From: a virus
DNA length: 64,000 nucleotides
IMG/VR virus record: IMGVR_UViG_3300020437_000004
Span: 1 to 64,000 of that record
Strand: one strand, 5' to 3'
The notes under the pieces were generated by a model. The model did no database searches. It saw nothing but the letters and a program-made list of their open reading frames with translations, and was not told the DNA's origin. The position numbers and the translations under genes are program-made. Positions 1 to 54,081 of the stretch are shown here, piece after piece (position 1 is the first letter of the stretch; each line of letters opens with the position of its first letter).

Positions 1-86
1 TCCGCTTTCTGCTCATCACCATGCACTTCAACAAGTGCTTCCTCATATAGTGCTTCAATTAGATCGGTGTTTGCTTGACAACTCAT
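1..86 (-). CDS. small hypothetical phage protein (runs off window start)
   Basis: Manual translation from ATG at 86: MSCQANTDLIEALYEEALVEVHGDEQKA..., open to the window edge. Confidence 0.5.
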   Translation of the reverse strand, partial: MSCQANTDLIEALYEEALVEVHGDEQKA

Positions 87-132
87 AATAAAATTCCTGG
101 AATAATGTGAATAATGGTTAATATAGTGGCGG

Positions 133-606
133 TTACCTCATGTAGAGGTGTCCGCCTGCCCAGTCAACTTTGTTTGGGTCTAGTAGAAATTTGATGTGAT
201 CAGGATTCTGAAAAGTGTATCTTACATGCTTAGCGGGTGATTTCCATGATGCAGGTTTATACACGTCACCAGTATTTTTATCGATGAATGTAACAACTGA
301 TCTCTCTCTATACTCTTGTCTGTCCTCTGACCACTCACATGAAACAACTTTGTAATACTTCTTACCTTCGATTGCCTTGAAAACGTCTAAGTTTGCTGTG
401 CCGTTTTCGATCTCAGCAAGTCTATCTAATTGATATTGAGATGGTGTAGATCTCACTTCACCGCCGAATGTTGGACGCTTATACATTGCGATAGTATAAA
501 GTTTTAGATTCTCAGTAAGTGCATCGCAATAACCTTGAGTATAAGACTTAACGAATGCCTTATTAGTCTTTTTGACTGATTCGCCGATTACTTTAGTTTG
601 AGTCAT
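133..606 (-). CDS. conserved phage hypothetical protein (FIDKxTGxVYKPASWKxPAK family)
   Basis: 157-aa ORF directly downstream of promoter cassette 1; C-terminal motif is common in marine phage early proteins. Confidence 0.8.
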   Translation of the reverse strand: MTQTKVIGESVKKTNKAFVKSYTQGYCDALTENLKLYTIAMYKRPTFGGEVRSTPSQYQLDRLAEIENGTANLDVFKAIEGKKYYKVVSCEWSEDRQEYRERSVVTFIDKNTGDVYKPASWKSPAKHVRYTFQNPDHIKFLLDPNKVDWAGGHLYMR

Positions 607-628
607 GTTTGTTTGTTTAATTACTCTT

Positions 629-687
629 ATTATAATGGGTAAATGTGTGGTAGTGTATTCTTATGTGACACTAATAAAACTGTCACA
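629..687 (-). promoter_or_regulatory. early promoter cassette copy 1
   Basis: TATAAT on minus at 629-634; GGTAGTGTATTC; palindrome TGTGACA-ctaataaaac-TGTCACA at 664-687. Confidence 0.8.
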
Positions 688-702
688 CAACTGGTTGACT
701 TT

Positions 703-915
703 TTATGGTCTTACCTCGTATTTTAAATGCTCAGCATGATAACCAATAAAATCAAATATTCGATTTCTTAGGTCATCTTCATTGTATGCTGTCCACCTAC
801 CTAGACATCTTTGGTGCATTACATATTCCTCTTGGGGTGTAAACTGCAAATCTGGGTCTCCGTCTCCTACTTCACTTAAGTAGAGTTCAATTTCTGTTAC
901 TTGATAATTCTTCAT
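703..915 (-). CDS. hypothetical protein
   Basis: 70-aa ORF with strong SD (AGGAGG) upstream. Confidence 0.75.
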   Translation of the reverse strand: MKNYQVTEIELYLSEVGDGDPDLQFTPQEEYVMHQRCLGRWTAYNEDDLRNRIFDFIGYHAEHLKYEVRP

Positions 916-927
916 TATGTTAACCTC

Positions 928-1104
928 CTATGGTAGTTGGTTAACATATACTTGTCTCTTGAATCTTGAGACTATCTCATCAAGTGTTTTTAAATCAATA
1001 TCATCGATATTGTCATTCTCTTCGCCAACATAATAAAATGTGTTGTGAATGTCTTTGATGAGATCTAAGAGTGAAATCTCGTTTGCTGTGTAATCTGCTG
1101 ACAT
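928..1104 (-). CDS. hypothetical protein (not in ORF track)
   Basis: Manual translation MSADYTANEISLLDLIKDIHNTFYYVG...QLP*, 58 aa, fills the gap downstream of cassette 2. Confidence 0.7.
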   Translation of the reverse strand: MSADYTANEISLLDLIKDIHNTFYYVGEENDNIDDIDLKTLDEIVSRFKRQVYVNQLP

Positions 1105-1130
1105 AAGTTTGATTGAATGATTATATTAAT

Positions 1131-1189
1131 ATTATAGTCACTAAAAACACGGTAGTGTATTCTTATGTGACACTAATATAACTGTCACA
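1131..1189 (-). promoter_or_regulatory. early promoter cassette copy 2
   Basis: TATAAT 1131-1136; ACACGGTAGTGTATTC; TGTGACA-ctaatataac-TGTCACA at 1166-1189. Confidence 0.8.
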
Positions 1190-1463
1190 TGTTTGGATAT
1201 TCTTCTTCTACTTTATGCTTAAAGTCTATTAATCCTTCGTGGATTTTAAACAATTTAAACATATCTACATCGCTGAAGTCATCCCACTCAGCAACATATC
1301 CCACTCTCTCGATATCTGGTTGACCATTCTTAAATTGTGGTGCATATCTGAAATCGCCATCGCTATCTAACCAAAAACACATGCCGAAATCATCGCTATT
1401 TGTAAAACCGTAAGGTGTAGGGGAAAAGTTATGCTTTTCCCTTAATGGTATGTTAGTAGGCAT
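1185..1463 (-). CDS. hypothetical protein
   Basis: 92-aa ORF, coupled to upstream ORF; its TGA lies inside the cassette palindrome. Confidence 0.75.
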   Translation of the reverse strand: MPTNIPLREKHNFSPTPYGFTNSDDFGMCFWLDSDGDFRYAPQFKNGQPDIERVGYVAEWDDFSDVDMFKLFKIHEGLIDFKHKVEEEYPNM

Positions 1464-1870
1464 TACTTTCTCACCTCGTAGTATTCTCTAACTATTGAAG
1501 TTTGCTCACCAAACTGTTTGATTAGAAAATTTCTATATCTTACTGCTTGGGTGCCTAGGCATCTAGCGATCGCTCTCTCATTGAATGAAATTTCATCTAT
1601 CTCCCATGAGTCGTTACGAATAGCATCAACAAAACTACCACTACTGTGATCAAATTTGTTGTAAGTTAATGTCCCACCATTGCTATTTCTACTTAAATCG
1701 TTTATATCGTGAGTATAGTAAACTGTAGCGATGTGCTGACTACCAACATAAACATTGCTAGTAAAACAGTTATCTGTTTGATATGAGTTGTGAATCATTA
1801 CATCATTTTTAAGTGATGTGCTTTCTCTCTGTTTGATTGCCTGTAATACTCTTGTTTGATAGATGTCCAT
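1463..1870 (-). CDS. hypothetical protein
   Basis: 135-aa ORF downstream of cassette 3. Confidence 0.7.
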   Translation of the reverse strand: MDIYQTRVLQAIKQRESTSLKNDVMIHNSYQTDNCFTSNVYVGSQHIATVYYTHDINDLSRNSNGGTLTYNKFDHSSGSFVDAIRNDSWEIDEISFNERAIARCLGTQAVRYRNFLIKQFGEQTSIVREYYEVRK

Positions 1871-1895
1871 GTGAGTAATTTATGATTATATAATC

Positions 1896-1954
1896 ATTAT
1901 AATCATTAAAAACACGGTAGGTAGTTTATATGTGACACTAATCCAACTGTCACA
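1896..1954 (-). promoter_or_regulatory. early promoter cassette copy 3
   Basis: TATAAT 1896-1901; ACACGGTAG; TGTGACA-ctaatccaac-TGTCACA at 1931-1954. Confidence 0.8.
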
Positions 1955-2867
1955 CACTATTAATACGTTTGTCGATTAATTCCTTATATTCTGAATGTAA
2001 CTCACATCCAATATAATCACGTCCTAATTGCTTACTAACCATTGCGGTAGTCCCTGATCCCATAAATGGATCTAAAATTAGGTCACCTACTCTACTCCCT
2101 GCTAAAATACACGGTTGAATGAGATCAGGCGGAAATACTGCAAAGTGACTTCCTTTATATGGTTTATTAGTTACTGACCATACAGATCGCTTATTCTTCT
2201 TAGGATAAGATTTAGTTAGTCCAGTATGGGGACTTAATCCTGTGCCTTTATTATGATACTTTCCTTTACTTCTATCTCTCACTCCCCAGTCTTTAGCATC
2301 TTCCTTGATTGCTTCATTGTCATAAAAATATTTCTTATTCTTACTGAATAAGAAAATATACTCATGTGCTTTAGTGCATCTATCTCTCACGGATTCGGGC
2401 ATCGGGTTAGGTTTATGCCAAATAATATCTTGCCTTAAATACCATCCATCCTGACGTAATGCAAACGCTAACATCCACGGAATACCGATTAAATCCTTTT
2501 CTTTTAATCCCTCTAACTTATTACCACGTTTATTACATTTATCAGGTAAATCTTGCTTAGTCTTACTTACTGATTGCTTAGGATATGACTGACCTTTTCC
2601 AGGACGATAATTATAATAACTATCTCCTATGTTTAACCATAGTGTGCCATCATCCTGTAAATTATCTCTTACTAAGCGAAAGATCTCCACCATATTTTTA
2701 ATATATTCTTCTGGTGTTTCTTCCTGACCTACTTGATTCTCTTCTCCACCATAATCCCTTAGTCCATAATAAGGCGGTGATGTTACACACATTTGTGCTT
2801 TATGCATCCAAAGATTTGGAAGTGTTTCTCTTACGTCACCATAGACAATAGTATTACGGTCGATCAT
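1950..2867 (-). CDS. beta-class N4-cytosine/N6-adenine DNA methyltransferase (orphan)
   Basis: Motif IV TSPPYY at N-terminus, motif I LDPFMGSGTT at C-terminus, IWHKPNPMPES. Confidence 0.9.
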   Translation of the reverse strand: MIDRNTIVYGDVRETLPNLWMHKAQMCVTSPPYYGLRDYGGEENQVGQEETPEEYIKNMVEIFRLVRDNLQDDGTLWLNIGDSYYNYRPGKGQSYPKQSVSKTKQDLPDKCNKRGNKLEGLKEKDLIGIPWMLAFALRQDGWYLRQDIIWHKPNPMPESVRDRCTKAHEYIFLFSKNKKYFYDNEAIKEDAKDWGVRDRSKGKYHNKGTGLSPHTGLTKSYPKKNKRSVWSVTNKPYKGSHFAVFPPDLIQPCILAGSRVGDLILDPFMGSGTTAMVSKQLGRDYIGCELHSEYKELIDKRINSV

Positions 2868-3076
2868 TCTTTAAGTTGGGGAAAATGTGTAGGTGTGAAT
2901 TCATCTAGTTTAACATTATAACCTATTACTCTAGGTGTTTCATATTCATCTTTTACTCTATTATAATACGATGCATGACTATCAAGATATGCCTGTATTT
3001 CTTCTGCTAAGTGAAATGGATTGATCTCAGCATCGTTGCCTGCTTGAATTTTGAAACAGTAGGTAATTTCTTTCAT
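2864..3076 (-). CDS. hypothetical protein
   Basis: 70-aa ORF, ATGA overlap with the MTase. Confidence 0.7.
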   Translation of the reverse strand: MKEITYCFKIQAGNDAEINPFHLAEEIQAYLDSHASYYNRVKDEYETPRVIGYNVKLDEFTPTHFPQLKE

Positions 3077-3078
3077 AG

Positions 3079-3153
3079 TTAGTGATGTGGGTTGTAATAG
3101 TTGAGCATTAAAAAGATAATAAAGATAATAACGAGAATAGTGATTACTAGCAT
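3079..3153 (-). CDS. 24-aa membrane microprotein (not in ORF track)
   Basis: MLVITILVIIFIIFLMLNYYNPHH*, a single hydrophobic helix that fills the intergenic gap. Confidence 0.55.
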   Translation of the reverse strand: MLVITILVIIFIIFLMLNYYNPHH

Positions 3154-3359
3154 TGAATTGATTGAATAAGTTTTAATTCTTGATAATTATATACGGTCTT
3201 TCTGTCTCCATTGTCATCAATTAATACTGTCCAGTTTTCAGTAGGTGTAAATCCTTTTCTGTCAGTATCGTCCTTAATGTAGTTAATTAAAACTGTGTAT
3301 GTATCACCCTTATATGATACGATATCACCTAGTGATATATCTTTGACTGAGTTATACAT
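3147..3359 (-). CDS. hypothetical protein
   Basis: 70-aa ORF in a tightly packed operon. Confidence 0.7.
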   Translation of the reverse strand: MYNSVKDISLGDIVSYKGDTYTVLINYIKDDTDRKGFTPTENWTVLIDDNGDRKTVYNYQELKLIQSIQC

Positions 3360-3631
3360 TATGCTAACTCCCTATCGTCAATAATCTCTAGCATTAATTG
3401 ATATGCCTTTGATGGGTCATCTTCATTTACATATGCTTTAAGATCTTCATAGATGTATTCATCACAATTATTAAATGTGTATTTCTTGAATTGCTCTGTG
3501 TCCATTGATTCAATTTCTTTTTCAACTTGATCTTTAGCAAGTTTGAGCAATTCTTCGTTACTCATAGTTGTGATAATATACTCTACATACTCCTCTTTGA
3601 TCTCTTGTAAATCACCAGTTTTTACAGTCAT
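3359..3631 (-). CDS. hypothetical acidic protein
   Basis: 90-aa ORF, coupled at both ends. Confidence 0.7.
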   Translation of the reverse strand: MTVKTGDLQEIKEEYVEYIITTMSNEELLKLAKDQVEKEIESMDTEQFKKYTFNNCDEYIYEDLKAYVNEDDPSKAYQLMLEIIDDRELA

Positions 3632-3792
3632 GATAATCCCTCCCAGATTGAAATAAATGTTGTAATCCAGTCACGATTTGCAACTGACATTGATGATAAA
3701 TCTTGCTCATCAGCACTTAACATAGGTAGATTGTGATCTGTGCAATACTGCACATAAATGTCACTTAACCAGTTGATTTGATTGTCATTCAT
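3628..3792 (-). CDS. hypothetical protein (not in ORF track)
   Basis: MNDNQINWLSDIYVQYCTDHNLPMLSADEQ...WEGLS*, 54 aa, ATGA overlaps at both ends. Confidence 0.75.
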   Translation of the reverse strand: MNDNQINWLSDIYVQYCTDHNLPMLSADEQDLSSMSVANRDWITTFISIWEGLS

Positions 3793-3971
3793 GATGTAAT
3801 CTCCCAAAATTTCTTGACTGCTGCGTCAGCAATAACAGGCAAATAACCTAGTTTTGAATTTTGCTCCATAGCATATAATTGATCATCAGTTAGACCATTT
3901 TCTTTACGAAAGTCTTCCCAACATTCGTCATAGCATTGATCTAAAAGTGCTTCCTCTTGAGTGAAATTCAT
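3789..3971 (-). CDS. hypothetical protein
   Basis: 60-aa ORF. Confidence 0.7.
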   Translation of the reverse strand: MNFTQEEALLDQCYDECWEDFRKENGLTDDQLYAMEQNSKLGYLPVIADAAVKKFWEITS

Positions 3972-3972
3972 G

Positions 3973-4233
3973 TTAGTTAACTCCTATGATGTTGAGTGCA
4001 TTGTTGTAAGCAACTGCTCTTGCTTCGATAACCTGATCTCTCACTCTCTCACGGTCTAGACTATCACCACCACCCCATGTTACATGAGTGCCTTCTTCAC
4101 ATAAATCTAAAACATTGAGAGTAGCAAGTGCTAACTCTTGTCTTGTTAATCCATCGATAGGATATAAACAGTCAGGATGCTCAGGTGAATAGAATGATTC
4201 ACAATAGTCAAGAAATTCTTTGAAGTTGTGCAT
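3973..4233 (-). CDS. conserved cyanophage hypothetical protein
   Basis: 86-aa ORF; FxDYCESFY and WGGGDSLDRERVRD motifs typical of cyanophage early proteins. Confidence 0.75.
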   Translation of the reverse strand: MHNFKEFLDYCESFYSPEHPDCLYPIDGLTRQELALATLNVLDLCEEGTHVTWGGGDSLDRERVRDQVIEARAVAYNNALNIIGVN

Positions 4234-4254
4234 GTGATTTGTTTAACTATTAAT

Positions 4255-4313
4255 ATAATAACAAAAAAGCACACGGTAGTGTGTTACCGTGTGCCACTAA
4301 TAAAACTGTCACT
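4255..4313 (-). promoter_or_regulatory. early promoter cassette copy 4
   Basis: -10 TATTAT 4255-4260; ACACGGTAG; TGTGCCA-ctaataaaac-TGTCACT at 4290-4313. Confidence 0.75.
4263..4294 (-). terminator. Rho-independent terminator overlapping cassette 4
   Basis: 10-bp stem GCACACGGTA/TACCGTGTGC with 6-nt loop, followed by T6 on minus. Confidence 0.7.
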
Positions 4314-4375
4314 CTGACAATAGACTTTCTCTTTTACATAGGTAAGCATTACCATTGATTACTGCATCAATATAA

Positions 4376-4513
4376 TTATTGTTTACAGTATGATTGATCA
4401 ATTTGGCATAACTGGTCAGTTTTTTGATCTTGGATTGCTGAGAATTTTTTGATTGCATTGATTCCGAAGTTGACTGTGAAAAAGATAATAATAAAGGTTA
4501 GAGCGTATCTCAT
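4376..4513 (-). CDS. small membrane protein (not in ORF track)
   Basis: MRYALTFIIIFFTVNFGINAIKKFSAIQDQK...CKQ*, 45 aa, TAATG overlap. Confidence 0.65.
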   Translation of the reverse strand: MRYALTFIIIFFTVNFGINAIKKFSAIQDQKTDQLCQIDQSYCKQ

Positions 4514-4833
4514 TAGTAATTCATGATTTGTTTAGTGGGGACTTGATTAATATAACCTTCAATAAATTCTTTACATTCACAAACAGTATCATATCCACCG
4601 ATCTTAGTGTATATGAATACACCATTATCTAATTGCTTACGAGCATTAACTCTATACTTGTAAGCATTATAATCACCTACATGTGCACCACTAAGATCTT
4701 CAGTAATAGTAAATGCACTTAATTGGATACCGTGATCATTCTCTACATAATCCTCGGATACGAAAACATGCTCACTATATGTTGAGACGTTTAGATCTAG
4801 GTGTGAGTTGATGATCGCTAGTTGGTCTTCCAT
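4513..4833 (-). CDS. hypothetical protein
   Basis: 106-aa ORF downstream of cassette 5. Confidence 0.7.
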   Translation of the reverse strand: MEDQLAIINSHLDLNVSTYSEHVFVSEDYVENDHGIQLSAFTITEDLSGAHVGDYNAYKYRVNARKQLDNGVFIYTKIGGYDTVCECKEFIEGYINQVPTKQIMNY

Positions 4834-4856
4834 GTGATTCTGTGTGATTACATCCT

Positions 4857-4914
4857 ATTATAGGGCATAGGTGAGCAAAGCACAAGTTTATGTGACACAA
4901 TATTAAATGTCACA
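4857..4914 (-). promoter_or_regulatory. early promoter cassette copy 5
   Basis: TATAAT 4857-4862; TGTGACA-caatattaaa-TGTCACA at 4891-4914. Confidence 0.75.
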
Positions 4915-5145
4915 TTTATATCCATCATTATAATATGATTCAATTATATTCATTTCGTCATCACTCAAATCCCATTTAAAATTACTAGGAAACAAGTTAA
5001 TCAATTTTTTAAATGCTTTATTACTGACTTCATTACTTCCGAAGTCATGTCGATCTCTCTCCACACATTCGTGGATATATCTCCACTCTTTAGTAGTGAA
5101 GTATCGTCTCACCTCATCATACTGATGTTGTGTTAATGGTCTCAT
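4903..5145 (-). CDS. hypothetical protein
   Basis: 80-aa ORF; its last codons are encoded by the cassette palindrome. Confidence 0.7.
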   Translation of the reverse strand: MRPLTQHQYDEVRRYFTTKEWRYIHECVERDRHDFGSNEVSNKAFKKLINLFPSNFKWDLSDDEMNIIESYYNDGYKCDI

Positions 5146-5146
5146 T

Positions 5147-5326
5147 TTAGTAGGATGCTTCCTCTAATTGGTCGATAGGGTTATCTTGAATACTGCAATA
5201 TGAAATATCGTCAGTATGATAAGATCGATAAATTCTCTTCCATATGGTATCGAATTCATCCTGATCTAAGTTTTTAAAGATAACTTGACCTTTAAAGTAA
5301 ATGTGGTAGGTTGTTGTTGTCTGCAT
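5147..5326 (-). CDS. conserved cyanophage hypothetical protein (not in ORF track)
   Basis: MQTTTTYHIYFKGQVIFKNLDQDEFDTIWKRIYRSY...ASY*, 59 aa. Confidence 0.7.
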   Translation of the reverse strand: MQTTTTYHIYFKGQVIFKNLDQDEFDTIWKRIYRSYHTDDISYCSIQDNPIDQLEEASY

Positions 5327-5501
5327 TTAAGTCCTCTAGATACATCCATTCGTAACTACTATCCTCGGGATCTTCATTGTTAATAATGTATTCATTGAAA
5401 ATAGCATCGCTATTACCAATATTTGAGTCATCTACATGTCGTTTAATATTTGTCATGTAGGTATATCTCATTGATGAGAGTGCGAATTCAATGGTATTCA
5501 T
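5292..5501 (-). CDS. hypothetical protein
   Basis: 69-aa ORF, ATGA overlap with the upstream oxygenase. Confidence 0.6.
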   Translation of the reverse strand: MNTIEFALSSMRYTYMTNIKRHVDDSNIGNSDAIFNEYIINNEDPEDSSYEWMYLEDLNADNNNLPHLL

Positions 5502-5983
5502 GACTGGGGAAAGTAATTAAAGTTGATTACACATCTATCCTGAGTGGATGATGTGCCATAGTGAATTGTCTCGGATGGAAATATAACCATCCTACCCTTA
5601 ACAGACTCTACTTTTTGGTCTCCTACCATCGTATAACCATCATTACTATTAACATAGTAAATTCCAGTTAAAGCGTTAGGAAATTTATGATCTGTATGTG
5701 GGTGTGATGACGTGGGCACTTGCGAGCGAAGTTGCAAGTTTGCTTTAATCTTAATGAGTGCACATGCATTTAAGTTATACAATAATGGTTGCATTGCCCT
5801 ATCTTGACAAAAGTCAGATTGTGGAAATCCATTATTATAAAACATATGCACCATTTGTGATCTCGAATCGGGGTCAGTTGATACTATCCTACGACAGTAT
5901 GACCACGAAAAAGTGTCACTCAATAAAAGATCATGAATCTCTTGTTGAATAACACTAGGGACGAAATCATCAATAATCCTCAT
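5498..5983 (-). CDS. Fe(II)/2-oxoglutarate oxygenase
   Basis: HxD (PHTDH), distal His (IHYG), Arg (DRCVINFN), VESVKGRMVIFP. Confidence 0.85.
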   Translation of the reverse strand: MRIIDDFVPSVIQQEIHDLLLSDTFSWSYCRRIVSTDPDSRSQMVHMFYNNGFPQSDFCQDRAMQPLLYNLNACALIKIKANLQLRSQVPTSSHPHTDHKFPNALTGIYYVNSNDGYTMVGDQKVESVKGRMVIFPSETIHYGTSSTQDRCVINFNYFPQS

Positions 5984-6108
5984 TTGTTAAATGGCGAATT
6001 GAAGTATGCCTTATTAACTGTGTAAACAGTCACTAGTGCTACTGCAATACCCAAAAAACCTAACCATAGAATAGGTGAATGTGGGAAATCGTATGTTGGA
6101 ATTTGCAT
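5980..6108 (-). CDS. small membrane protein (not in ORF track)
   Basis: MQIPTYDFPHSPILWLGFLGIAVALVTVYTVNKAYFNSPFNK*, 42 aa, one TM helix. Confidence 0.7.
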   Translation of the reverse strand: MQIPTYDFPHSPILWLGFLGIAVALVTVYTVNKAYFNSPFNK

Positions 6109-6129
6109 GTGTGTTTGTTTAACCTCTAT

Positions 6130-6188
6130 ATTATATGGCACTTAACCTATGTATGGTAGGGTCTTGTGCCACTACTTGATCTGTCATA
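6130..6188 (-). promoter_or_regulatory. early promoter cassette copy 6 (inside 3' end of 6131..6706)
   Basis: TATAAT 6130-6135; TGTGCCA-ctacttgatc-TGTCATA at 6165-6188, same 30-nt offset as copies 1-4. Confidence 0.7.
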
Positions 6189-6706
6189 CAATAGATTGAC
6201 CCGAGTGACACTCGTATGCCATCGTCAGGTGGTAGTCCCATGTGATACATATGCGATGGGAAAATTAAAGTTTGTCCCATATGAAATGGCACTCTCTCTA
6301 TTTCTTCGTTTGCATTATTGTAGAATACAGTATCACCTGATTCACCAGCTGCATGATATACAACTGAGATAAGATTAGGCATGTCACCATCATTATGGAT
6401 TTGTGACTGCATATTATCAAATTGCATATTCAATAGTGTCCTCATAGTTTTAGCATGTAATCGATGCTCCATGAGTGCATTAAAATATTTGATAAACCAT
6501 TCATCCTCACTACCCACAAATACACCATCTTGCACTACCATAGTGCCAAAGAATCGTGCATTCTCATAGCAGGCATAGGGACTATTAGTCCATCTAACAG
6601 GATATTCAACTAATCTGTTGGCAACACTATCTACCATCCAGTCAGGAAAAAGACCACTAACAACTTCAACCAAAACCACTCCCTCCTTTAGATTTAGGTC
6701 TATCAA
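6131..6706 (-). CDS. Fe(II)/2-oxoglutarate oxygenase (prolyl-hydroxylase-like)
   Basis: IHNDG (HxD), GESGDTVFY, YHMG, RVS. Confidence 0.85.
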   Translation of the reverse strand: MIDLNLKEGVVLVEVVSGLFPDWMVDSVANRLVEYPVRWTNSPYACYENARFFGTMVVQDGVFVGSEDEWFIKYFNALMEHRLHAKTMRTLLNMQFDNMQSQIHNDGDMPNLISVVYHAAGESGDTVFYNNANEEIERVPFHMGQTLIFPSHMYHMGLPPDDGIRVSLGSIYCMTDQVVAQDPTIHRLSAI

Positions 6707-6872
6707 TTACTTCAATTCTATCTATAAGAATCTTTTTATTCCACCATAACTCTTGGATTTCTTGCCATGAATCCAACACTTTAGTGGAATTATCTTTGCA
6801 AATAACCTTATAGCAATGCCTATCATATGGGGCACTACTGGTCTCGGTGAAGTAATTAGGAAGTGAGATCAT
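6666..6872 (-). CDS. conserved cyanophage hypothetical protein
   Basis: 68-aa ORF, PYDRHxYK motif, basic KGFG-like C-terminus. Confidence 0.7.
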   Translation of the reverse strand: MISLPNYFTETSSAPYDRHCYKVICKDNSTKVLDSWQEIQELWWNKKILIDRIEVIDRPKSKGGSGFG

Positions 6873-7087
6873 AGTCTATCATTAAGTAATTGAATTTGCC
6901 AATTATCATCCCCACCTTCTAGTCGGTCAACCCAAAACCAAAAGTCAGGATAGTCAGGTGCTGAGCAAAACACCCTATTACCTCTAATATGCTCAACAAT
7001 AACCTCATTCTTATTGTTGAGATATTTGGTAAATATCTGTTGTGCCTTATTACTTTTAGGCACAACTAATGCTCTATTTTTAAGCAT
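6869..7087 (-). CDS. hypothetical protein
   Basis: 72-aa ORF, V.PKSxKA motif. Confidence 0.7.
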   Translation of the reverse strand: MLKNRALVVPKSNKAQQIFTKYLNNKNEVIVEHIRGNRVFCSAPDYPDFWFWVDRLEGGDDNWQIQLLNDRL

Positions 7088-7922
7088 AGTCTAGTCTTGT
7101 AAGTAAGTTGTCTTTAAATGGTCTGAGTCTATCGATGCACATTTTATGATATGTTTCATCGATCTCAAAACCAATAAATTGTCTATTCTCCTCTACTGAT
7201 ACCTGAGCGGTTGTGCCTGCACCCATAAATGGGTCTAGCACTACATCATTGACACTAGACCACGTTTTAATGTGACCTCGTGCCAACTCCTCAGGCATTG
7301 TAGCAGGATGTTTATATGATGCTTTAGACGATTGTCCAAATCCACCACTATTTTTAATTCTCCATATGTTTGTCCTTACTCCCCACTCTTTAATCGCATT
7401 ACTCTTACGATTAGGGTCATGTGTAGTGCCATCCTTTTTGCGTGATGTAGCATTACCCCATGATGTGATGCCTGCCCACTTGTTTTTCTTATCTTGAATA
7501 AGATTAATAGTTTTGGGACGTCCTTTAGATAGTATGAAACAATACTCAAATACTTGAGTATATCTTACTGACTTGACTCCACTAGCGAATGCTGTGCCTG
7601 TTTTCTCATATATCATTGTGTCGTGAAGTCTCAACCCTAAATCCATAAAATGTAAACATTGACGAAAACTAGATCCAGTCTCGGATCCTTTTATTGTCGC
7701 ATCGTTTACATTCCACATTATTACACCACCTTCCTTTAACACTCTGACCAGACCAGTAGCAACATCCTTAAAGACATTAAAATCCCACTTGCTACTATCA
7801 TTATATGTGCGTAAATCGTCGTAAGGCGGTGACGTTACGACGAGATCAACACTTTCTTTATCCATGAGTTGCATACCATCGATACAACTCATGTGATAGG
7901 TATCATTAAGCGATAGTTTCAT
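7080..7922 (-). CDS. beta-class N4-cytosine/N6-adenine DNA methyltransferase
   Basis: VTSPPYD (motif IV), HPATMP, LDPFMGAGTT (motif I). Confidence 0.9.
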   Translation of the reverse strand: MKLSLNDTYHMSCIDGMQLMDKESVDLVVTSPPYDDLRTYNDSSKWDFNVFKDVATGLVRVLKEGGVIMWNVNDATIKGSETGSSFRQCLHFMDLGLRLHDTMIYEKTGTAFASGVKSVRYTQVFEYCFILSKGRPKTINLIQDKKNKWAGITSWGNATSRKKDGTTHDPNRKSNAIKEWGVRTNIWRIKNSGGFGQSSKASYKHPATMPEELARGHIKTWSSVNDVVLDPFMGAGTTAQVSVEENRQFIGFEIDETYHKMCIDRLRPFKDNLLTRLDYA

Positions 7923-8526
7923 AAACTGTGTGGATAAATTTCTGTGTCCTTCTTACACTACCGTAGATAGGTGTGATACAAATAAGATCTTCATTGTGCA
8001 CTCTAAGAGTAGAAAATCCGTTGTTGTTTTTACCAGTCTTAGTAACTGAGTCAGTCCAACCAGTAGCAGGATTCATAGCAAGTGACAAGTCAACTAGACA
8101 TGCAAACACCTCAGGAAATCCATTCTCTTTTTGTGTCAACTTAACACAAAAGATCTTATCAACCTTGGTCTTACTGTGATTGTTACCAGTAGCGAATGAT
8201 GATGTGCTACTACCGAGTGACATTTTGTTTTCGATCTCTTGCTCTAAGAGTAGAGCATCGTAACCAACTGTCTCCTCACTAATGTAATCAACACCCAAAT
8301 CTACTGCTGAGTCCTCAAGAGCAGGGTTAAAGATGTTTGCAAGAAATTTAGTTTTGTCAACTGTATTGTCCTCACCAAAGAATGTATCTAGGTTAGACTT
8401 CTTACCACCACTACAAATGTGTAGTGCTTTAGCAACACGGTCTGAAGTCAACTTGACTGCTTTAGGGACGATACGCTTAAGTGCTTCAGCGAGTTGGATG
8501 TTGTCTGCTTGGGGTCTGAGTTTCAT
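7906..8526 (-). CDS. putative PD-(D/E)XK restriction endonuclease-like protein
   Basis: GYD-x8-ENK fits the (P)D...(D/E)xK catalytic pattern; overlaps the MTase by 17 nt. Confidence 0.5.
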   Translation of the reverse strand: MKLRPQADNIQLAEALKRIVPKAVKLTSDRVAKALHICSGGKKSNLDTFFGEDNTVDKTKFLANIFNPALEDSAVDLGVDYISEETVGYDALLLEQEIENKMSLGSSTSSFATGNNHSKTKVDKIFCVKLTQKENGFPEVFACLVDLSLAMNPATGWTDSVTKTGKNNNGFSTLRVHNEDLICITPIYGSVRRTQKFIHTVYETIA

Positions 8527-8547
8527 TGTATTTGTCTGATTGATCTT

Positions 8548-8605
8548 ATTATAGCGTCAATAAAGACGGTAGTGCAATGTAGTGGTCAGTTTCTCAAGTG
8601 TCCTA
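8548..8605 (-). promoter_or_regulatory. early promoter cassette copy 7 (degenerate)
   Basis: TATAAT 8548-8553; ACGGTAGTG at the same offset as copies 1-4; GTGGTCA-gtttctcaag-TGTCCTA at 8582-8605. Confidence 0.65.
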
Positions 8606-8715
8606 CTCATATGCCTGTAACCACTACCAACATAGATCTGACCTGCTACAACACTAAGAGTTGCAACACCCCAAAAAATGTAATACCATTTAGATTTGAT
8701 TTGATACCTTTTCAT
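8557..8715 (-). CDS. small membrane protein (not in ORF track)
   Basis: MKRYQIKSKWYYIFWGVATLSVVAGQIYVGSGYRHM..., 52 aa, one TM helix. Confidence 0.7.
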   Translation of the reverse strand: MKRYQIKSKWYYIFWGVATLSVVAGQIYVGSGYRHMSRTLEKLTTTLHYRLY

Positions 8716-8717
8716 AA

Positions 8718-9977
8718 TTAAACAATAGATGTGGGTGCAACACCCTTTACAAAAATCTCATCGACTACTCTCTGTAGTCTCTTGACAACTGCATTACCAT
8801 AATTGTTATGGATAGGGACTGTCAAGTAACCAGTTGGTTTTCTATAAAACTGACATGCACCTGCAGGAATACGACCTTCAGCGATCGCTTTAGTGTCATC
8901 CTTATGCATACGAATCACACGACCAATAGTTTGTGCCATTGATACAACATTGAGATTTCTCAATAGAATGCAATGGGTCAGACCGTGGACGTTGATACCC
9001 TCAGATAGAATAGAATAGTGCATAACAACAAATTTCTTGTTGTTATCCTTACCCCACTCAGATAGAGTTGTCATAAACTCTTCTCTGTTTACTTTCTTGT
9101 CATTAATATATGCACCATATTTAGATGTGACATGTAGATAGTCATAACCTCTGAGTCTCAACTGAGACAATAGAGTAGTGTGACCGATCATGTTGCCGAG
9201 GATACGACTAGATGGGACTGCAATCAACACCTTAGATGCTGACTCCTCATCAAGTGTGTCTAGCACATTGATAACTGTCCTTGTTTGTGTCTCATGCATT
9301 GTATCTCTATCCAAATCCATTTCAGTAGTAAATGGGACGATAGTAGGTGACACAATACTACCGTTAGCAATCAATTCTGGTGCAGGGACTGACTCCAATA
9401 CATCACCATAAACAAATTTGTTATTCATACCTCTAGTATGAATGCCTTCATTCTTTCTTGCTGTGCGTGGTGTCGCTGTGAAAAAATAACATTTATCTGC
9501 AACTTTACTTGACTCCATTGCTTTAGGGAAAAACTGACGTGTTACACTATTGTGTGCTTCATCAAAATAGATAGCATCAATAGGAATATCAGACTCCAAT
9601 ACACGATGTAGTGAATGATATGTTGTAAATATAATTGCATTCTCATGTAGAGCACGGCAACCCTCAACAAAATTAGCAATCTCTAGTGCCTTGGTTGTGC
9701 TGTAATAATGTGTCTCACCTGAGTGAGCATGACATACACGACCTTTAACTTGCTCCATGAAATCATCACACAACTGTTGAGCAAGTAAGATACGAGGTGC
9801 TACTACAACAATATGCTTAGGTCTATTGAGATACATGTTAGGTGTCTCTAATAGTTTCTTAGCATGCTGTATCATAATAAATGTCTTACCACCGCCTGTT
9901 GGGACGATGATCTGACCCTTGTCTGCTGTGCTCATAGCATCGAGTGCTCGTTGCTGATGTGGGCGAAGTGTGATCAA
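8718..9977 (-). CDS. SF2 DEAH-box helicase (ResIII-like)
   Basis: LRPHQ Q-motif, PTGGGKT Walker A, DEAH, TATP, LSEGIN, QTIGRVIR; start moved to TTG at 9977 because the promoter and terminator lie in 9999-10055. Confidence 0.85.
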   Translation of the reverse strand: MITLRPHQQRALDAMSTADKGQIIVPTGGGKTFIMIQHAKKLLETPNMYLNRPKHIVVVAPRILLAQQLCDDFMEQVKGRVCHAHSGETHYYSTTKALEIANFVEGCRALHENAIIFTTYHSLHRVLESDIPIDAIYFDEAHNSVTRQFFPKAMESSKVADKCYFFTATPRTARKNEGIHTRGMNNKFVYGDVLESVPAPELIANGSIVSPTIVPFTTEMDLDRDTMHETQTRTVINVLDTLDEESASKVLIAVPSSRILGNMIGHTTLLSQLRLRGYDYLHVTSKYGAYINDKKVNREEFMTTLSEWGKDNNKKFVVMHYSILSEGINVHGLTHCILLRNLNVVSMAQTIGRVIRMHKDDTKAIAEGRIPAGACQFYRKPTGYLTVPIHNNYGNAVVKRLQRVVDEIFVKGVAPTSIV

Positions 9978-9998
9978 TGTATTCGTGTCGTTAGACGT

Positions 9999-10055
9999 AT
10001 TATAACATAAAAATGGGGTGCTGTGCACCCCTAGGTCAGTTATTCGATTGTCACA
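9999..10055 (-). promoter_or_regulatory. early promoter cassette copy 8
   Basis: TATAAT 9999-10004; TAGGTCA-gttattcgat-TGTCACA at 10032-10055. Confidence 0.65.
10009..10031 (-). terminator. Rho-independent terminator overlapping cassette 8
   Basis: GGGGTGC-tgt-GCACCCC stem followed by ATTTTT on minus. Confidence 0.6.
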
Positions 10056-10097
10056 ATGGTGGGACGAAACAAACATAATAAAGAATGTTGTTTCGCC
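10009..10097 (-). ncRNA. candidate ~90-nt small RNA
   Basis: Bounded by a TTGACA-16-TATTAT promoter and a terminator; 5' hairpin GGCGAAACAACAU/AUGUUUGUUUCGUC at 10063-10097. Confidence 0.35.
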
Positions 10098-10103
10098 TTT
10101 AAT

Positions 10104-10131
10104 ATAATAGCATATAATTATCTCTTGTCAA
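10104..10131 (-). promoter_or_regulatory. sigma70-type promoter
   Basis: TTGACA (10126-10131), 16-nt spacer, TATTAT (10104-10109). Confidence 0.55.
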
Positions 10132-10444
10132 CCTCTGGTAACATATCATTTCCAGGATGATCATCTATCTTTCCTTTATATGATTTACCATATTGTTTAA
10201 TTGCTTCTACTTCAACATTACCCCACTCATTTGGATATACACAAATACAACACTTATTCATAGGTTGTCGTGACCCTTCGGGATTAGGTTTAGTGGATAC
10301 ACAAATAGTGATGTAGTCATCACTAACAAATTCGATAGTGCCTTCTAGACCATCATACTTTGCTTTGCGTCCAACTTCTAGGTGTTTCATAATGTTTCGT
10401 AATTCAACCCTATCTGCATTACTTATGATAAGTGGGATAGTCAT
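10118..10444 (-). CDS. conserved cyanophage hypothetical protein
   Basis: 108-aa ORF; GTIEFVSDDYITICV motif. Confidence 0.7.
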   Translation of the reverse strand: MTIPLIISNADRVELRNIMKHLEVGRKAKYDGLEGTIEFVSDDYITICVSTKPNPEGSRQPMNKCCICVYPNEWGNVEVEAIKQYGKSYKGKIDDHPGNDMLPEVDKR

Positions 10445-10613
10445 GTTTCAAGTGTAACTTTTCAATAATCTGAGAGATAGTATCACGGTCAACAGTTGAA
10501 ACACCATTGTATTCTCTCCACATCTTAGACTGGTAGAGGAATAAACACTTTCTAACGAGATTCTTCTCGTGATCAGTTAGTATGGCATCTTTTGCAAACA
10601 CGTTGATCTCCAT
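10419..10613 (-). CDS. hypothetical protein
   Basis: 64-aa ORF. Confidence 0.65.
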   Translation of the reverse strand: MEINVFAKDAILTDHEKNLVRKCLFLYQSKMWREYNGVSTVDRDTISQIIEKLHLKHDYPTYHK

Positions 10614-10645
10614 CGTTATTTGTATTTATTATAACGATACCATTT

Positions 10646-11362
10646 TTACTTTGTCCAATATAACAGCGTTTGCTCATACATCAACTCTTTAACCTTTTTA
10701 GGATTGAGTCCTGCTACTCCTAGATCATCCTCTGTGTATGGGTGCTTAAGTTTACTAGCAACATCTAACAATTCATTGCGTTGCTCAATACCCATAAACT
10801 TGAATGCCATCATATATCTATTCCACAAGAAATATGGTGTGGGTGTGCGTCCTGAGTGTGGGATTCTACCATCGAAAATGACCACTCTGCCAGGTTTTGG
10901 CACTACTGCGTGGACGATATCTAACTCGTGATCATAGAATATAGTTTCTCCACCATAGTTAGGTATCCAAAACTGATTCATATAGACAATCATAGTGCAT
11001 TGATTATCACACCAGTATGGTGCATCACAATGGATTCTGGGTGCATCACCATGTTTCAACACATTCATATATGCTGAGTATAATGTCTCCCGTGGGGGCA
11101 CGGGCACATGTGAGCAATTTTCGAGTCTGTCTAACACCCATTGATATAGATGATGTCCTGAGCATTGATCAAAAGGTTTGCTTCCATGATGATCTACACT
11201 ATAGAAATCATGTGTATAGTATGTCCCTCTAAGATCTACTTTCTCAAGATTAGTTTGTGGCAAATCTTGTCTGCCATGATAATAAGGTAACTCTATTGCT
11301 TGCCGACAAATATCATCGTCAAGTATGTCAGTATCATATATTTTAATTAGAGGGTGCTTCAT
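10646..11362 (-). CDS. Fe(II)/2OG oxygenase, prolyl-4-hydroxylase-like
   Basis: IHCDAP (HxD), YGGETIFYD, VPKPGRVVIFDGRIPH. Confidence 0.9.
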   Translation of the reverse strand: MKHPLIKIYDTDILDDDICRQAIELPYYHGRQDLPQTNLEKVDLRGTYYTHDFYSVDHHGSKPFDQCSGHHLYQWVLDRLENCSHVPVPPRETLYSAYMNVLKHGDAPRIHCDAPYWCDNQCTMIVYMNQFWIPNYGGETIFYDHELDIVHAVVPKPGRVVIFDGRIPHSGRTPTPYFLWNRYMMAFKFMGIEQRNELLDVASKLKHPYTEDDLGVAGLNPKKVKELMYEQTLLYWTK

Positions 11363-12069
11363 TCAATAAATCCAATGGTGTTGTTAAACTCATCATATCC
11401 TCTGTCAATGTTAGTCATTTGATATGCTGTGATATTCATAGTCATCACATATCTATTGCTATCACTATTGTTTCTGCCTGTCCTATGCTTCAACCAACCA
11501 GGAAAATATAATACATCATTTGTCTTTACTGGAATTTGGATCCAATGATCCTGTCTAGGTAATTCATAACCATCGTCAACAGGTTCTGCATACTTAAATG
11601 TATGCAAAGGATTGAGAATTTCTAGGTTACCACTACCTTCTGGCACATCTAAGTATGCACAAACTCCCACCTGCACATTGTGATGATGATGCTCTAACGT
11701 TGTTGCCTTGGGTGGATGTCTATTAATCCAACTCTCTGACATATTACGATAGACACCTTTAAGTGACCACATATCCCATATCCTATCTACAACACTAGGG
11801 ATGTGGTTGTTAGTCAAGTCATCAAAACATTGCCATCCGTGTGGTGGGTCATGTCGGCATCTACCAACTGACGATACTCCACCCTCTTCTAGTGCTGAGT
11901 TTAGATAGTTAGACTCTGGACTCTCGATAAAGTCTAGAAATATATCTGTCTCCTTTTTAATATCCTTCCATATATCTGAGAGATTATACTGTGATCTAAA
12001 GATAAAAGGATAAGGATTAACTGATTCTAAACCATCGCCAATCGACTGGTCTGGTAATGCTGTGAGCAT
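11359..12069 (-). CDS. Fe(II)/2OG oxygenase (TIGR02466-like)
   Basis: WINRHP...EHHH, AYLDVPEGSGNL, LYFPGWLKH, RYVMTMN; true start may be slightly downstream. Confidence 0.85.
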   Translation of the reverse strand: MLTALPDQSIGDGLESVNPYPFIFRSQYNLSDIWKDIKKETDIFLDFIESPESNYLNSALEEGGVSSVGRCRHDPPHGWQCFDDLTNNHIPSVVDRIWDMWSLKGVYRNMSESWINRHPPKATTLEHHHHNVQVGVCAYLDVPEGSGNLEILNPLHTFKYAEPVDDGYELPRQDHWIQIPVKTNDVLYFPGWLKHRTGRNNSDSNRYVMTMNITAYQMTNIDRGYDEFNNTIGFIE

Positions 12070-16854: not shown

Positions 16855-18313
16855 ACAATGTCCTATTGTAATAATCTAACGGATTGACTCCTAGTCTAGC
16901 ATGATTCCACTCGTGTGTCCAACTGTTGAGGTGTGAGTCCTCAGGAATTCCACCATGAAATAGGATCTCACTTTCAATAACATCAGTAAATGGATTCCAT
17001 CCATGACCTGCCATCACACAATAGAGTGAGTCTCCATCAGCATTTTGCCAATTTAGTTTATTACCAAAATTATGTGACTCCTCTAGCATTGTGATCTTCG
17101 CTGCCTCAATCATATTACCATCAGGATATCTTATTTGCGATACCGCTTTCCAGTAATCTGAGTCATGACGCTGTGTAAGAGCATAATGAAGAGCAACAAA
17201 AGAAGCAAAACCATCGAATGCAAATGCTACTGCCTTGTTATATGTATCCCTCATCATTTGAGTGGTGTGCGGTTTCCACATCCTACAGAATTTGAGTAGG
17301 AATTCATGCACCGACAACAATCCATTAGATTCTAATGGTTCGATGAAACCACCAGACAATCCAATAGACACCACATTACCACACCATATCTCTTTCTTTC
17401 TTCCTGTCTTAAAATGTATCTTTCTAAACTCTTCAGTATCATATTTAAGGAAAGATGCAAACTCTTTTAGTGCACTTTGATGATCCTGATACTTACTAGA
17501 GAATACATATCCCGTCCCAATACGGGCAAATGTGGGCACTGTCCAGACCCAACCACTACTCAATGCTGTGCACTGTGTATATGATTTTAATTCCTCTTGT
17601 TTATCTTTATATTCTAAACGTGTGACCCATGCTGTATCATTTGGCAACCAGTCACTATAATCTAACCACTCAGAATTGTTGAGTAGAGATGTAAATCCTG
17701 TGCAATCAAAATATAAATCTGCTTCGTGTTGTTTCTCATCTATCCACAGATATTTTATATCGTCTCCTACCCTCTCAAAATCATCTACTGTGCCAATAAT
17801 ACGCTTGACACTCTGGCATTTATTGTCTCGTAACCACTCAGCGAATTTTACAGCATCAAAGTGAAATCCAGTATTCTTTTTGATTTTAAAATTAGGATCC
17901 TTGATAGGTAACAGGTTATGCTCTGCACATTCTGCTGCTATCCAATAATCTCTGGCAAATTTATCATTACTCCATCCTTTCTTATATTGATTCCAAAACC
18001 AGACATCAGGGTGTGCCAAATTATAATTTGGCGATCCAAATGGATATTGCCATGGTGTGTCGTCCACATCATGAAAATTACTAAATCTTACACTAATCTT
18101 ATATGTGGCATCACATGCCACCATCCAGTCCTCATCTTTGAGTCCTACATAATCTGCCCAGATCCTAAAATACTGAGTCGTAGACTCTCCTACACCCACA
18201 GGGGGTTTACTAGGTGACTCTACGACTGTGATGTCTGCGTCTGGAAATTTTGTCAGCATTGTGGTTGCTGTCATCCAACCAGATGACCCACCACCAATAA
18301 TATAAATTTTCAT
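16844..18313 (-). CDS. flavin-dependent halogenase (tryptophan halogenase family)
   Basis: GGGSSGW, VGVGESTT, ATYK, WVWTVP, FIEPLESNG. Confidence 0.9.
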   Translation of the reverse strand: MKIYIIGGGSSGWMTATTMLTKFPDADITVVESPSKPPVGVGESTTQYFRIWADYVGLKDEDWMVACDATYKISVRFSNFHDVDDTPWQYPFGSPNYNLAHPDVWFWNQYKKGWSNDKFARDYWIAAECAEHNLLPIKDPNFKIKKNTGFHFDAVKFAEWLRDNKCQSVKRIIGTVDDFERVGDDIKYLWIDEKQHEADLYFDCTGFTSLLNNSEWLDYSDWLPNDTAWVTRLEYKDKQEELKSYTQCTALSSGWVWTVPTFARIGTGYVFSSKYQDHQSALKEFASFLKYDTEEFRKIHFKTGRKKEIWCGNVVSIGLSGGFIEPLESNGLLSVHEFLLKFCRMWKPHTTQMMRDTYNKAVAFAFDGFASFVALHYALTQRHDSDYWKAVSQIRYPDGNMIEAAKITMLEESHNFGNKLNWQNADGDSLYCVMAGHGWNPFTDVIESEILFHGGIPEDSHLNSWTHEWNHARLGVNPLDYYNRTLYAV

Positions 18314-53340: not shown

Positions 53341-54081
53341 TTAATATCCAAGAGATAATTTGCTAACGAGATACTCTTTCACGAGACCTGACCTTACTAT
53401 ATCATCAATACCAAACTCTACGCAAGTAAATGATGGCATTTGCTTAAGAATTCTAAGGAAGTCTAGGATACCTTCTCTCTCATTAGATTTTGTCAAGTCT
53501 GACTGAAAGTAATCACCACAAAAAATAATTTTGCAGTCTTCTCCAACACGAGTGATAATAGAATCTAACTCGTGGAAGTTTAGGTTTGAAAACTCATCAA
53601 CAAGAATGATAGAGTTATCAAATGTGGTGCCTCTAATAAAAGAGGTTGACCAGAATGAAATAGTTTCTTGTGCTCTAAGATTAGAATACAATGCTTCAAA
53701 ACTATTGTCATCAGGCATCTCAAACATATACTTCACCATATTTTTATATGGAATTTGATATAGGTTTGATTTGTCTTCATGATCACCTGGCAAGAAACCA
53801 ATCTCCCTTGTAGGGACGAGTGACCTTACCATGTAAACCTTCTCATACTTTGATGCAGGGTCAAGACATTGTTTCAATGCAAGATACAAAGAGATGAATG
53901 TCTTACCTGTCCCTGCTGCACCATGGAGCACTAGATTCTGTCCCTTACCATATGCTTCCCAGATCTTCTCCTGATTCTCTGTGAGTGGCTCGATGGTTTT
54001 AAGGTGCTCAAGGTTGATAGGTTTCTTCCTTCGCAATACCTTGGTTGGGATATTTGCTAGTGACTTCTTTGGTCTAGGCAT
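53341..54081 (-). CDS. phoH: PhoH-like ATPase
   Basis: GAAGTGKT, IGFLPG, FIRGTT, DEFSN, DIVRSGLV. Confidence 0.95.
   Translation of the reverse strand: MPRPKKSLANIPTKVLRRKKPINLEHLKTIEPLTENQEKIWEAYGKGQNLVLHGAAGTGKTFISLYLALKQCLDPASKYEKVYMVRSLVPTREIGFLPGDHEDKSNLYQIPYKNMVKYMFEMPDDNSFEALYSNLRAQETISFWSTSFIRGTTFDNSIILVDEFSNLNFHELDSIITRVGEDCKIIFCGDYFQSDLTKSNEREGILDFLRILKQMPSFTCVEFGIDDIVRSGLVKEYLVSKLSLGY

Follow-up and report, generated by a model that had tools for sequence, protein, structure and literature searches.

Dyad-bearing promoter cassettes of a P-TIM40-like cyanophage and the host regulator PlmA as a candidate reader

The window analysed here is a 64,000-nt stretch of viral DNA, and its nearest record is that of the cyanophage P-TIM40, to which it is 87% identical. 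Judged from sequence, the source phage is a marine, P-TIM40-like member of the T4-like cyanomyoviruses. Eight cassettes, each combining a two-armed inverted repeat (dyad) with a -10 box, lie on the minus strand between positions 629 and 10055. Cassette 1 (629..687) consists of a dyad at 664-687, a CACTACC box at 649-655 and TATAAT at 629-634, and precedes a gene at 133-606 (DUF7717). Cassette 2 (1131..1189; dyad 1166-1189, CTACCG 1150-1155, TATAAT 1131-1136) stands ahead of the genes at 928-1104 and 703-915, and its distal arm contains the TGA stop codon of the upstream ORF. Cassette 3 (1896..1954; dyad 1931-1954, CTACCG 1915-1920, TATAAT 1896-1901) is preceded by a methyltransferase gene whose stop lies within the dyad arm, and is followed by the genes at 1463-1870 and 1185-1463. 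Cassette 4 (4255..4313; dyad 4290-4313, CTACCG 4274-4279, TATTAT 4255-4260), in which the inner A/G pair of the dyad is mismatched, heads a block that runs from 4233 to about 2864. Cassette 5 (4857..4914; dyad 4891-4914, TATAAT 4857-4862) lacks the CTACCG box and precedes the gene at 4513-4833. Cassette 6 (6130..6188; dyad 6166-6187, ATGACA...TGGCAC; TATAAT 6130-6135) carries its CTACC shifted 5 nt upstream, and the whole promoter lies within the 3' end of the upstream ORF, with a small downstream gene starting at 6108. Cassette 7 (8548..8604; CTACCG 8567-8572, TATAAT 8548-8553) has a decayed dyad at 8583-8604 (AGGACA...TGACCA) that sits within a 52-codon ORF, and is followed by a gene at 7906-8526 and a methyltransferase gene at 7080-7922. 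Cassette 8 (9999..10055; TATAAT 9999-10004) heads a helicase gene and has a good distal arm, TGTGACA, and a variant proximal arm, CTGACCT (10033-10054). At its expected -35 place (about 10010-10031), a G+C hairpin with a T-run (-13.7 kcal/mol) is a predicted intrinsic terminator, a reading that we keep for this hairpin, unlike for the dyad.

The cassettes share a strict layout. The gap between the dyad and the minus-strand -10 box is 30, 30, 30, 30, 29, 30, 29 and 28 nt in cassettes 1 to 8, and the box reads TATAAT in seven copies and TATTAT in one, in agreement with the 28-30 nt that an earlier note on this DNA had given. The two-armed site is 24 bp long (TGTGMCASTT-N4-AASTGKCACA), spans -65 to -42 and is centred near -53.5. 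Five copies carry CACTACCG as a -35-region box. CTACC(G/A) occurs 13 nt ahead of a -10 box at five places only in the whole 125-kb contig, and these are precisely the five at which its reverse complement, a conserved (C/T)GGTAG, had been noticed. The sequence at the -35 position is ACACTA or TACACT; the region is not sigma-70-like, as its earlier description as a poor -35 implied, and a terminator hairpin takes its place in the cassette at 10032 and in many environmental copies. A start codon follows every cassette after 20-27 nt, and the leader after the -10 box is A/C-rich and has no Shine-Dalgarno sequence. The earlier claim that the cassettes are promoters heading blocks of small genes holds.

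A pattern search of the window finds exact GTGNCA-N10-TGNCAC in the promoter cassettes at 665, 1167, 1932, 4291 and 4892. At 6166 a single position is mismatched; at 10033 two are, and these both fall in the right arm (TGACCT). The match at 8582 has more than two mismatches, and its best register (8583-8604) carries four. By chance, 0.11 exact dyads are expected per window, and none of 100 shuffles reaches six matches. One further exact match, at 17790, is located inside a 495-codon coding ORF and has no -10 box, and we therefore reject it as a cassette and regard it as a chance occurrence. The eight palindromes of the earlier note are thus six good dyads, five exact and one with a single mismatch, whereas those at 8582 and 10032 are decayed.

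The arrangement is conserved among cyanophages. P-TIM40 carries eight dyad cassettes at 48.9-55.0 kb in its small-gene region, of which six are orthologous to copies in the window (at 53762, 53288, 52467, 50296, 49698 and 48885 for cassettes 1-6). The two phages differ at 4% of positions in the arms and 6% in the -10 box, as against 29% in the dyad centre and 23% in the spacer. The dyad, box and -10 of cassette 7 are the same as in P-TIM40, and its spacer differs at three positions. The early region of Syn9 has the same dyad, 29-32 nt ahead of TATTCT or TATACT. The scan of related cyanophages that the earlier note had proposed thus recovers the motif in P-TIM40, in Syn9 and, by pattern scan, in at least 120 IMG/VR contigs. 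Among the IMG/VR matches listed, a -10 box lies 28-34 nt downstream in 264 of 288 dyads, with a gap of 30 nt in 181, 31 nt in 51 and 29 nt in 23. The dyads of whole phage genomes are grouped in a single region of 10-15 kb, a reversed-pattern control finds none, and 1.15 Mb of phage DNA holds 281 convergent dyads versus one everted.

A 2016 study by Doron and colleagues reportedly described a "novel regulatory element" of early genes in T4-like cyanophages, Syn9 and P-TIM40 among them, and is said to have found it conserved among cyanomyoviruses and metagenomes. The dyad of the window is very probably this element, as the earlier note had thought conceivable for Syn9; the identification draws on what that study reportedly described and on the occurrence of the dyad in the records of both Syn9 and P-TIM40. 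Both concern the same phage group and the same location in a small-gene region, the nearest relative of the window was itself studied, and there is probably no difference between the two elements. We believe that the promoter type is already published, and that the window adds one more genome to it.

We compared the cassettes with other known promoter types. NtcA sites (GTA-N8-TAC at -41.5) and class I and II CRP sites likewise place a dyad upstream of a -10 box that has no usable -35, but neither the arms (TGTGMCASTT) nor the spacing nor the centre at about -53.5 fits them. The arms read TGTGA-N14-TCACA and GTA-N8-TAC is absent, and both types are rejected on spacing, as had been argued earlier. 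A sigma-54 promoter (-24 TGGCAC, -12 TTGC) would have TTGC four to five bases past TGGCAC, near the start site. It is also rejected on spacing: the bases after TG(G/T)CAC are ATAAG or ACGGT, and this element is about 45 nt away from the inferred start. Cyanobacteria are not known to have sigma-54.

The distal arm has a counterpart in the hosts. CGRE1 is the site of PMM1637, a PlmA-type GntR regulator, in the yfr2 small-RNA promoters of Prochlorococcus and marine Synechococcus; PMM1637 binds the motif in pull-down and EMSA experiments that included an R50A mutant, and it raises expression from the yfr2 promoter (Lambrecht et al., 2018; PMC6191309), so that the host site acts positively. The exact bases of CGRE1 are uncertain: the published text fits either an everted palindrome, CAAC-N13/14-GTTG, or a motif that starts at the GTT(G/A) of the arm, and both readings overlap the arm shared by phage and host. 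That arm, GTGMCAGTT(G/A), is exact in four copies of the window and also occurs in host yfr2 promoters, where a GTGMCAGTT-like arm is present in 23 of 36. In 15 of these 23, the first G of the arm is followed precisely 52-53 nt later by TAnnnT; the corresponding distance to the -10 box in the phage is 51-53 nt (52 +/- 1), matching the host geometry. Phage and host also share the orientation of the arm, a G at second-arm position 15 and a setting ahead of a promoter that lacks a good -35. The proximal arm is where they differ. In host yfr2 promoters it resembles the phage arm at 3-8 of 10 positions, being degenerate, or, in several hosts, the second arm abuts upstream in the opposite, everted arrangement, whereas in the phage the two arms form a near-perfect convergent dyad, which is lacking in the hosts. 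The full dyad occurs nowhere in three complete Prochlorococcus genomes and is no commoner than the reversed-pattern control in two Synechococcus genomes. Phage and host thus share the arm and the spacing, not the whole site. Each of the three Prochlorococcus genomes has one GntR gene, and one Synechococcus has one above the cut-off. A literature search found no paper tying CGRE1 or PMM1637 to the promoters of T4-like cyanophages.

Each promoter has three parts, namely the two-armed site, a lineage-specific -35-region box unlike a sigma-70 -35 (here the five-copy box described above) and a consensus -10. The -10 box would be used by host RNA polymerase with its primary sigma factor, and a dimeric protein bound to the two-armed site would replace the contribution of the missing -35; the cassettes would be activated early in infection. 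The most likely reader would be the single GntR-family regulator of the host, PlmA (PMM1637 in Prochlorococcus MED4). In their distal arm, in the way it is oriented and in its spacing to the -10 box, the cassettes match the yfr2 promoters that PMM1637 binds and activates. We give an even chance to the reading that these are early-class promoters of a P-TIM40-like phage whose dyad is most likely read by host PlmA as an activator. Since phage and host promoters use one shared DNA word at an equal spacing to the -10 box, PlmA is a testable candidate reader, and the "host factor" of the earlier note thereby gains a concrete candidate; the virion-delivered reader that it had offered as the other option finds no support.

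The reader may instead be a phage protein, brought in with the virion or synthesised at the very start of infection, or another host factor acting on the same early cassettes, in which case the likeness to yfr2 would reflect mimicry, competition or coincidence. We consider this possible but rather doubtful. It would account for the confinement of the symmetric dyad to phages (281 in the 1.15 Mb, none in the three Prochlorococcus genomes) and for the divergent second arm of the host sites, and the "novel" label reportedly given in 2016 suggests that no host counterpart was recognised at that time. On the other hand, a Pfam search of 20 early-region ORFs of the window found no DNA-binding domain, a search for a GntR gene in four related phage genomes and in the partial contig of the window found none, and a 9-base arm common to phage and host, with matching orientation and 52-53 nt from the -10 box, is hard to obtain by chance. 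The site could also be a shut-off operator: a host repressor, or a protein produced once infection is under way, would bind there and end early transcription that the -10 box alone initiates. The perfect TATAAT of most copies would suit such an operator, and the early classes of related phages are reported by Doron and colleagues to fall off fast. We hold it to be unlikely, however: a span of -65 to -42 misses the -10 box and the start, which are the usual place of repression, and with a -35 region that is either non-canonical or gives way to a hairpin, initiation can be expected to receive some help. Moreover, yfr2 promoters have this arm at the equivalent position, and its effect there is positive (PMC6191309).

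The palindrome might, finally, be mainly a nucleic-acid structure, either a 3' mRNA hairpin or terminator of the upstream gene or a recombination module for gene shuffling like the promoter-early stem-loop (PeSL) cassettes of the T4-type coliphages RB49 and phi1 (Arbiol et al., 2010; PMC2839356). PeSL cassettes have a comparable layout: they too are short repeated intergenic elements in a plastic small-gene region, at the seams of gene gain and loss, and they too join an upstream stop codon, an inverted repeat and an early promoter. In the window, the upstream stop codon often lies inside the dyad, the folding energies of perfect copies are -10.7 to -12.0 kcal/mol, the cassettes cross-match each other over 43-74 bp at 80-91% identity, and a gene replacement (691-945) adjoins cassette 1. 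However, the stem-loops of PeSL cassettes vary in sequence and are G/C-rich terminators beside a full sigma-70 -35/-10, whereas the repeat of the window is conserved in sequence, is not a terminator, keeps a fixed, rigid distance to the -10 box and has no -35. We therefore reject PeSL membership, which entails a terminating stem-loop and a consensus -35/-10: here two copies fold weakly and ACACTA or TACACT stands at -35. A U-tract was looked for after the dyad hairpin in the window copies and none was found, the copies at 4291 and 6166 fold at just -3.6 and -4.9 kcal/mol, and pairing is not kept, so the dyad is rejected as an intrinsic terminator as well. Across 260 natural copies, sequence and not pairing is maintained: about 30% of sites have a mismatch at the inner M/K pair, and positions 6 and 15 are anti-complementary. 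The arms show no hairpin covariation, and the dyad behaves as a protein site, not a hairpin. A mainly structural or recombinational role is accordingly very improbable, and recombination between cassettes may be a side effect.

The reader of this promoter type decides how the most abundant phages of the ocean take over Prochlorococcus and Synechococcus without the MotA and AsiA of T4. The yfr2 match points to one host protein, and the PlmA question is directly testable because the purified protein and a reporter assay have already been described in the literature. It is a tentative but close to evenly balanced proposal that T4-like cyanophages borrow PlmA from the host to set their infection programme going, their early promoters being perfected, symmetric versions of the PlmA sites of yfr2. 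If so, the first phage transcription would be coupled to the signalling of nitrogen and light in the host, and the broad range of hosts in which the same programme works would be explained by a single factor universal among cyanobacteria.

The window spans the leading 64 kb of a viral contig of 124,853 bp, and positions 600-10100 are matched by Cyanophage P-TIM40, a T4-like cyanomyovirus of Prochlorococcus NATL2A, with 86.7% identity over 89% of the length. Every gene in positions 1-12,000 is encoded on the minus strand, and the promoter cassettes are therefore read on that strand. The inverted repeat GTGNCA-N10-TGNCAC (the dyad) has six exact matches in the window, compared with 0.11 expected from shuffles. 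Five of them, at 665, 1167, 1932, 4291, and 4892, belong to the eight copies claimed in the earlier note, while the sixth, at 17790, is a chance match within a 495-codon ORF and without a -10 box. Copy 6166 departs from the pattern at one position and copy 10033 at two, and the copy at 8582 was not recovered by a window scan allowing up to two mismatches. The eight claimed sites are real, but two of them have decayed. As also described in that note, the gap from the dyad to the minus-strand -10 box is 28-30 nt. Every copy shows the same layout of dyad, gap, TATAAT (TATTAT in one cassette), a 20-27 nt A/C-rich leader, and the start codon. Five copies carry CTACC(G/A) 13 nt ahead of the -10 box, and the contig has no other occurrence of this sequence; the poor "-35" TACACT indeed reads so with a 17-nt spacer. 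In cassettes 2, 3, and 4 (numbered by position), the upstream ORF ends within the distal arm, far from the -10 box, and its TGA stop forms part of that arm. Cassettes 6 and 7, the most decayed of the set, are contained in the 3' ends of the ORFs upstream. In cassette 8 the -35 region is occupied by a G+C hairpin (-13.7 kcal/mol) that carries a T-run.

Two consecutive minus-strand hairpins within 10010-10090, at 10056-10090 (-14.8 kcal/mol) and 10010-10031 (-13.7 kcal/mol, with the T-run), part the helicase gene from the upstream oxygenase/endonuclease block, and they are likely a terminator boundary ahead of the first cassette to be read. The leaders after the -10 box (606-628, 1104-1130, 4233-4254, 6108-6129, and 8526-8547, minus strand), such as AAACAAACAAAC preceding ATG, are without a Shine-Dalgarno sequence, and the same A/C-rich type is seen in many environmental (IMG/VR) copies. 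A ninth cassette-like copy lies outside the window, in an intergenic gap at contig positions 68346-68367 (minus strand), about 2.5 kb from psbA and remote from the early region; it consists of the arm GTGACAATT, four bases, AACTGTCCT, 30 nt, TAGAAT, an A/C-rich leader, and ATG. An S-TIM4-like genome also has one isolated additional dyad copy, at 129.5 kb. The decayed copies at 8583-8604 and 10033-10054 share a variant proximal arm (near the -10 box), AACTGACC; TGTCC is found in cyanophage Syn9 and in the copy at 68346, and GCGGCCC in hosts. The substitution of C for the arm's A thus recurs in decayed copies, Syn9, copy 68346, and hosts, and it may mark weaker natural sites.

Eight such cassettes are present in P-TIM40, all within 48.9-55.0 kb; six have orthologues among the window copies, whereas the other two lie beyond the contig start. 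The decayed cassettes 7 and 8 are also kept in P-TIM40, with three to four base changes each. Across the six orthologous pairs, 4% of positions differ in the arms, 6% in the -10 box, 29% in the four central bases of the dyad, and 23% in the 30-nt spacer. In the small-gene region of Syn9, the same dyad lies 29-32 nt before TATTCT, TATACT, or TATATT, ahead of gp55, 61, 63, 68, 73, 75, and 89/90. A scan of IMG/VR with the dyad, 30 nt, and TATAAT as the query matched at least 120 contigs, many with two to five copies. Among the matches listed, 0.97 Mb of IMG/VR DNA contains 288 dyads, and for 264 of them an oriented TAnnnT follows at a distance of 28-34 nt; 181 have a gap of 30 nt, 51 of 31 nt, and 23 of 29 nt, only 153 dyads being selected for the 30-nt gap by the query. 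The 24-bp consensus at unselected positions among these matches is T-GTG(C/A)CA-(G/C)TT-N4-AA-(G/C)-TG(G/T)CAC-A, and a purine is conserved 6 nt past the -10 box. This purine is likely the transcription start, which would put the centre of the dyad at about -53.5. Lineages differ in their -35 region, which can be TTGAAA-like, C-rich, a terminator hairpin, or, in the present contig, CACTACCG. In whole phage genomes, the dyads are grouped within one 10-15 kb region, and the reversed dyad pattern used as a control gave zero matches.

An inverted repeat could act as a hairpin or as a protein site. For the perfect window copies a fold of about -11 to -12 kcal/mol is possible, with no U-tract after them; the folds of copies 4291 and 6166 are weak (-3.6 and -4.9 kcal/mol). 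Among the matches listed, 161 of 260 distinct sites have a complementary inner M/K pair (144 expected under independence), and about 30% of sites carry A/G or C/T mismatches there. Positions 6 and 15 of these matches are anti-complementary (G..G 93 and C..C 57 vs. G..C 39 and C..G 28; Fisher 7e-8), and this persists when each contig contributes a single site (median p = 3e-5). G..G and C..C represent one asymmetric site in two orientations. Because sequence and not pairing is conserved, the dyad appears to be read by a protein as double-stranded DNA. The asymmetry is systematic: instead of showing perfect symmetry, most of the listed sites join one CAGTT and one CACTT arm (93 vs. 57 by orientation).

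Doron et al. 2016 reportedly found a novel regulatory element controlling the early genes of Syn9, with similar results for P-TIM40, and the elements are said to be conserved in genomes and metagenomes. The window element is very probably this published cyanophage early-promoter element, and the promoter finding is to that extent already known. The mechanism proposed in the earlier note, a dimeric activator substituting for the -35, is the best reading. According to PMC7238727, the expression classes of P-TIM40 and Syn9 were characterised by Doron et al. 2016, and cyanophages of this type are without motA/asiA and T4-type middle promoters (PMC5780444). Beyond cyanophages, the closest described layout is that of the PeSL cassettes of RB49/phi1, which depend on genuine terminators together with complete sigma-70 promoters (PMC2839356). 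Compared with P-TIM40, the window has two additional genes (5498-5983 and ~3794-3965), a 2OG-Fe(II)-oxygenase-like ORF and a 60-codon ORF, and 691-945, adjoining cassette 1, is a non-homologous gene replacement. The cassettes align to one another across 43-74 bp, and such cross-matches would allow PeSL-like shuffling.

The exact dyad is absent from three complete Prochlorococcus genomes and one Synechococcus genome, and a second Synechococcus genome has three, equal to its reversed-pattern count. CGRE1, a palindromic motif of 21-22 nt beginning 55-57 nt before the starts of the yfr2 small RNAs, is bound by the host GntR protein PMM1637 (PlmA), as shown by pull-down, EMSA, and an R50A mutant, and PMM1637 increases reporter expression (Lambrecht et al., 2018, PMC6191309). 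CGRE1 is absent elsewhere in the MED4 genome (PMC6778093). A search of 44 picocyanobacterial genomes with Rfam RF01701 located the yfr2 genes, and 36 upstream regions were read. In 23 of the 36, a GTGMCAGTT-like arm precedes the RNA model by 55-65 nt, and in 15 of these 23 promoters TAnnnT follows the arm's first G by exactly 52-53 nt, which is the phage geometry. The host second arm, past the first arm and four bases, is weak, typically (C/T)AG(C/A)G..C, and, like the commonest phage class, has G at position 15. In six hosts a second good arm adjoins upstream in everted order, an order seen once in phages vs. 281 convergent dyads. Each Prochlorococcus genome searched has one GntR gene; no GntR match reached threshold in the present 66% contig, one 89% phage genome, and three others that are complete or nearly so. 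Pfam searches of 20 early ORFs from the window yielded no DNA-binding domain. In arm, orientation, and spacing the phage site agrees with a PlmA-type host site, but in whole-site arrangement it does not, so it looks like a symmetrised form of the host site rather than a copy. The chances that PlmA reads the phage dyad are about evenly balanced, and a named host candidate for the dyad's reader is what the present analysis adds.
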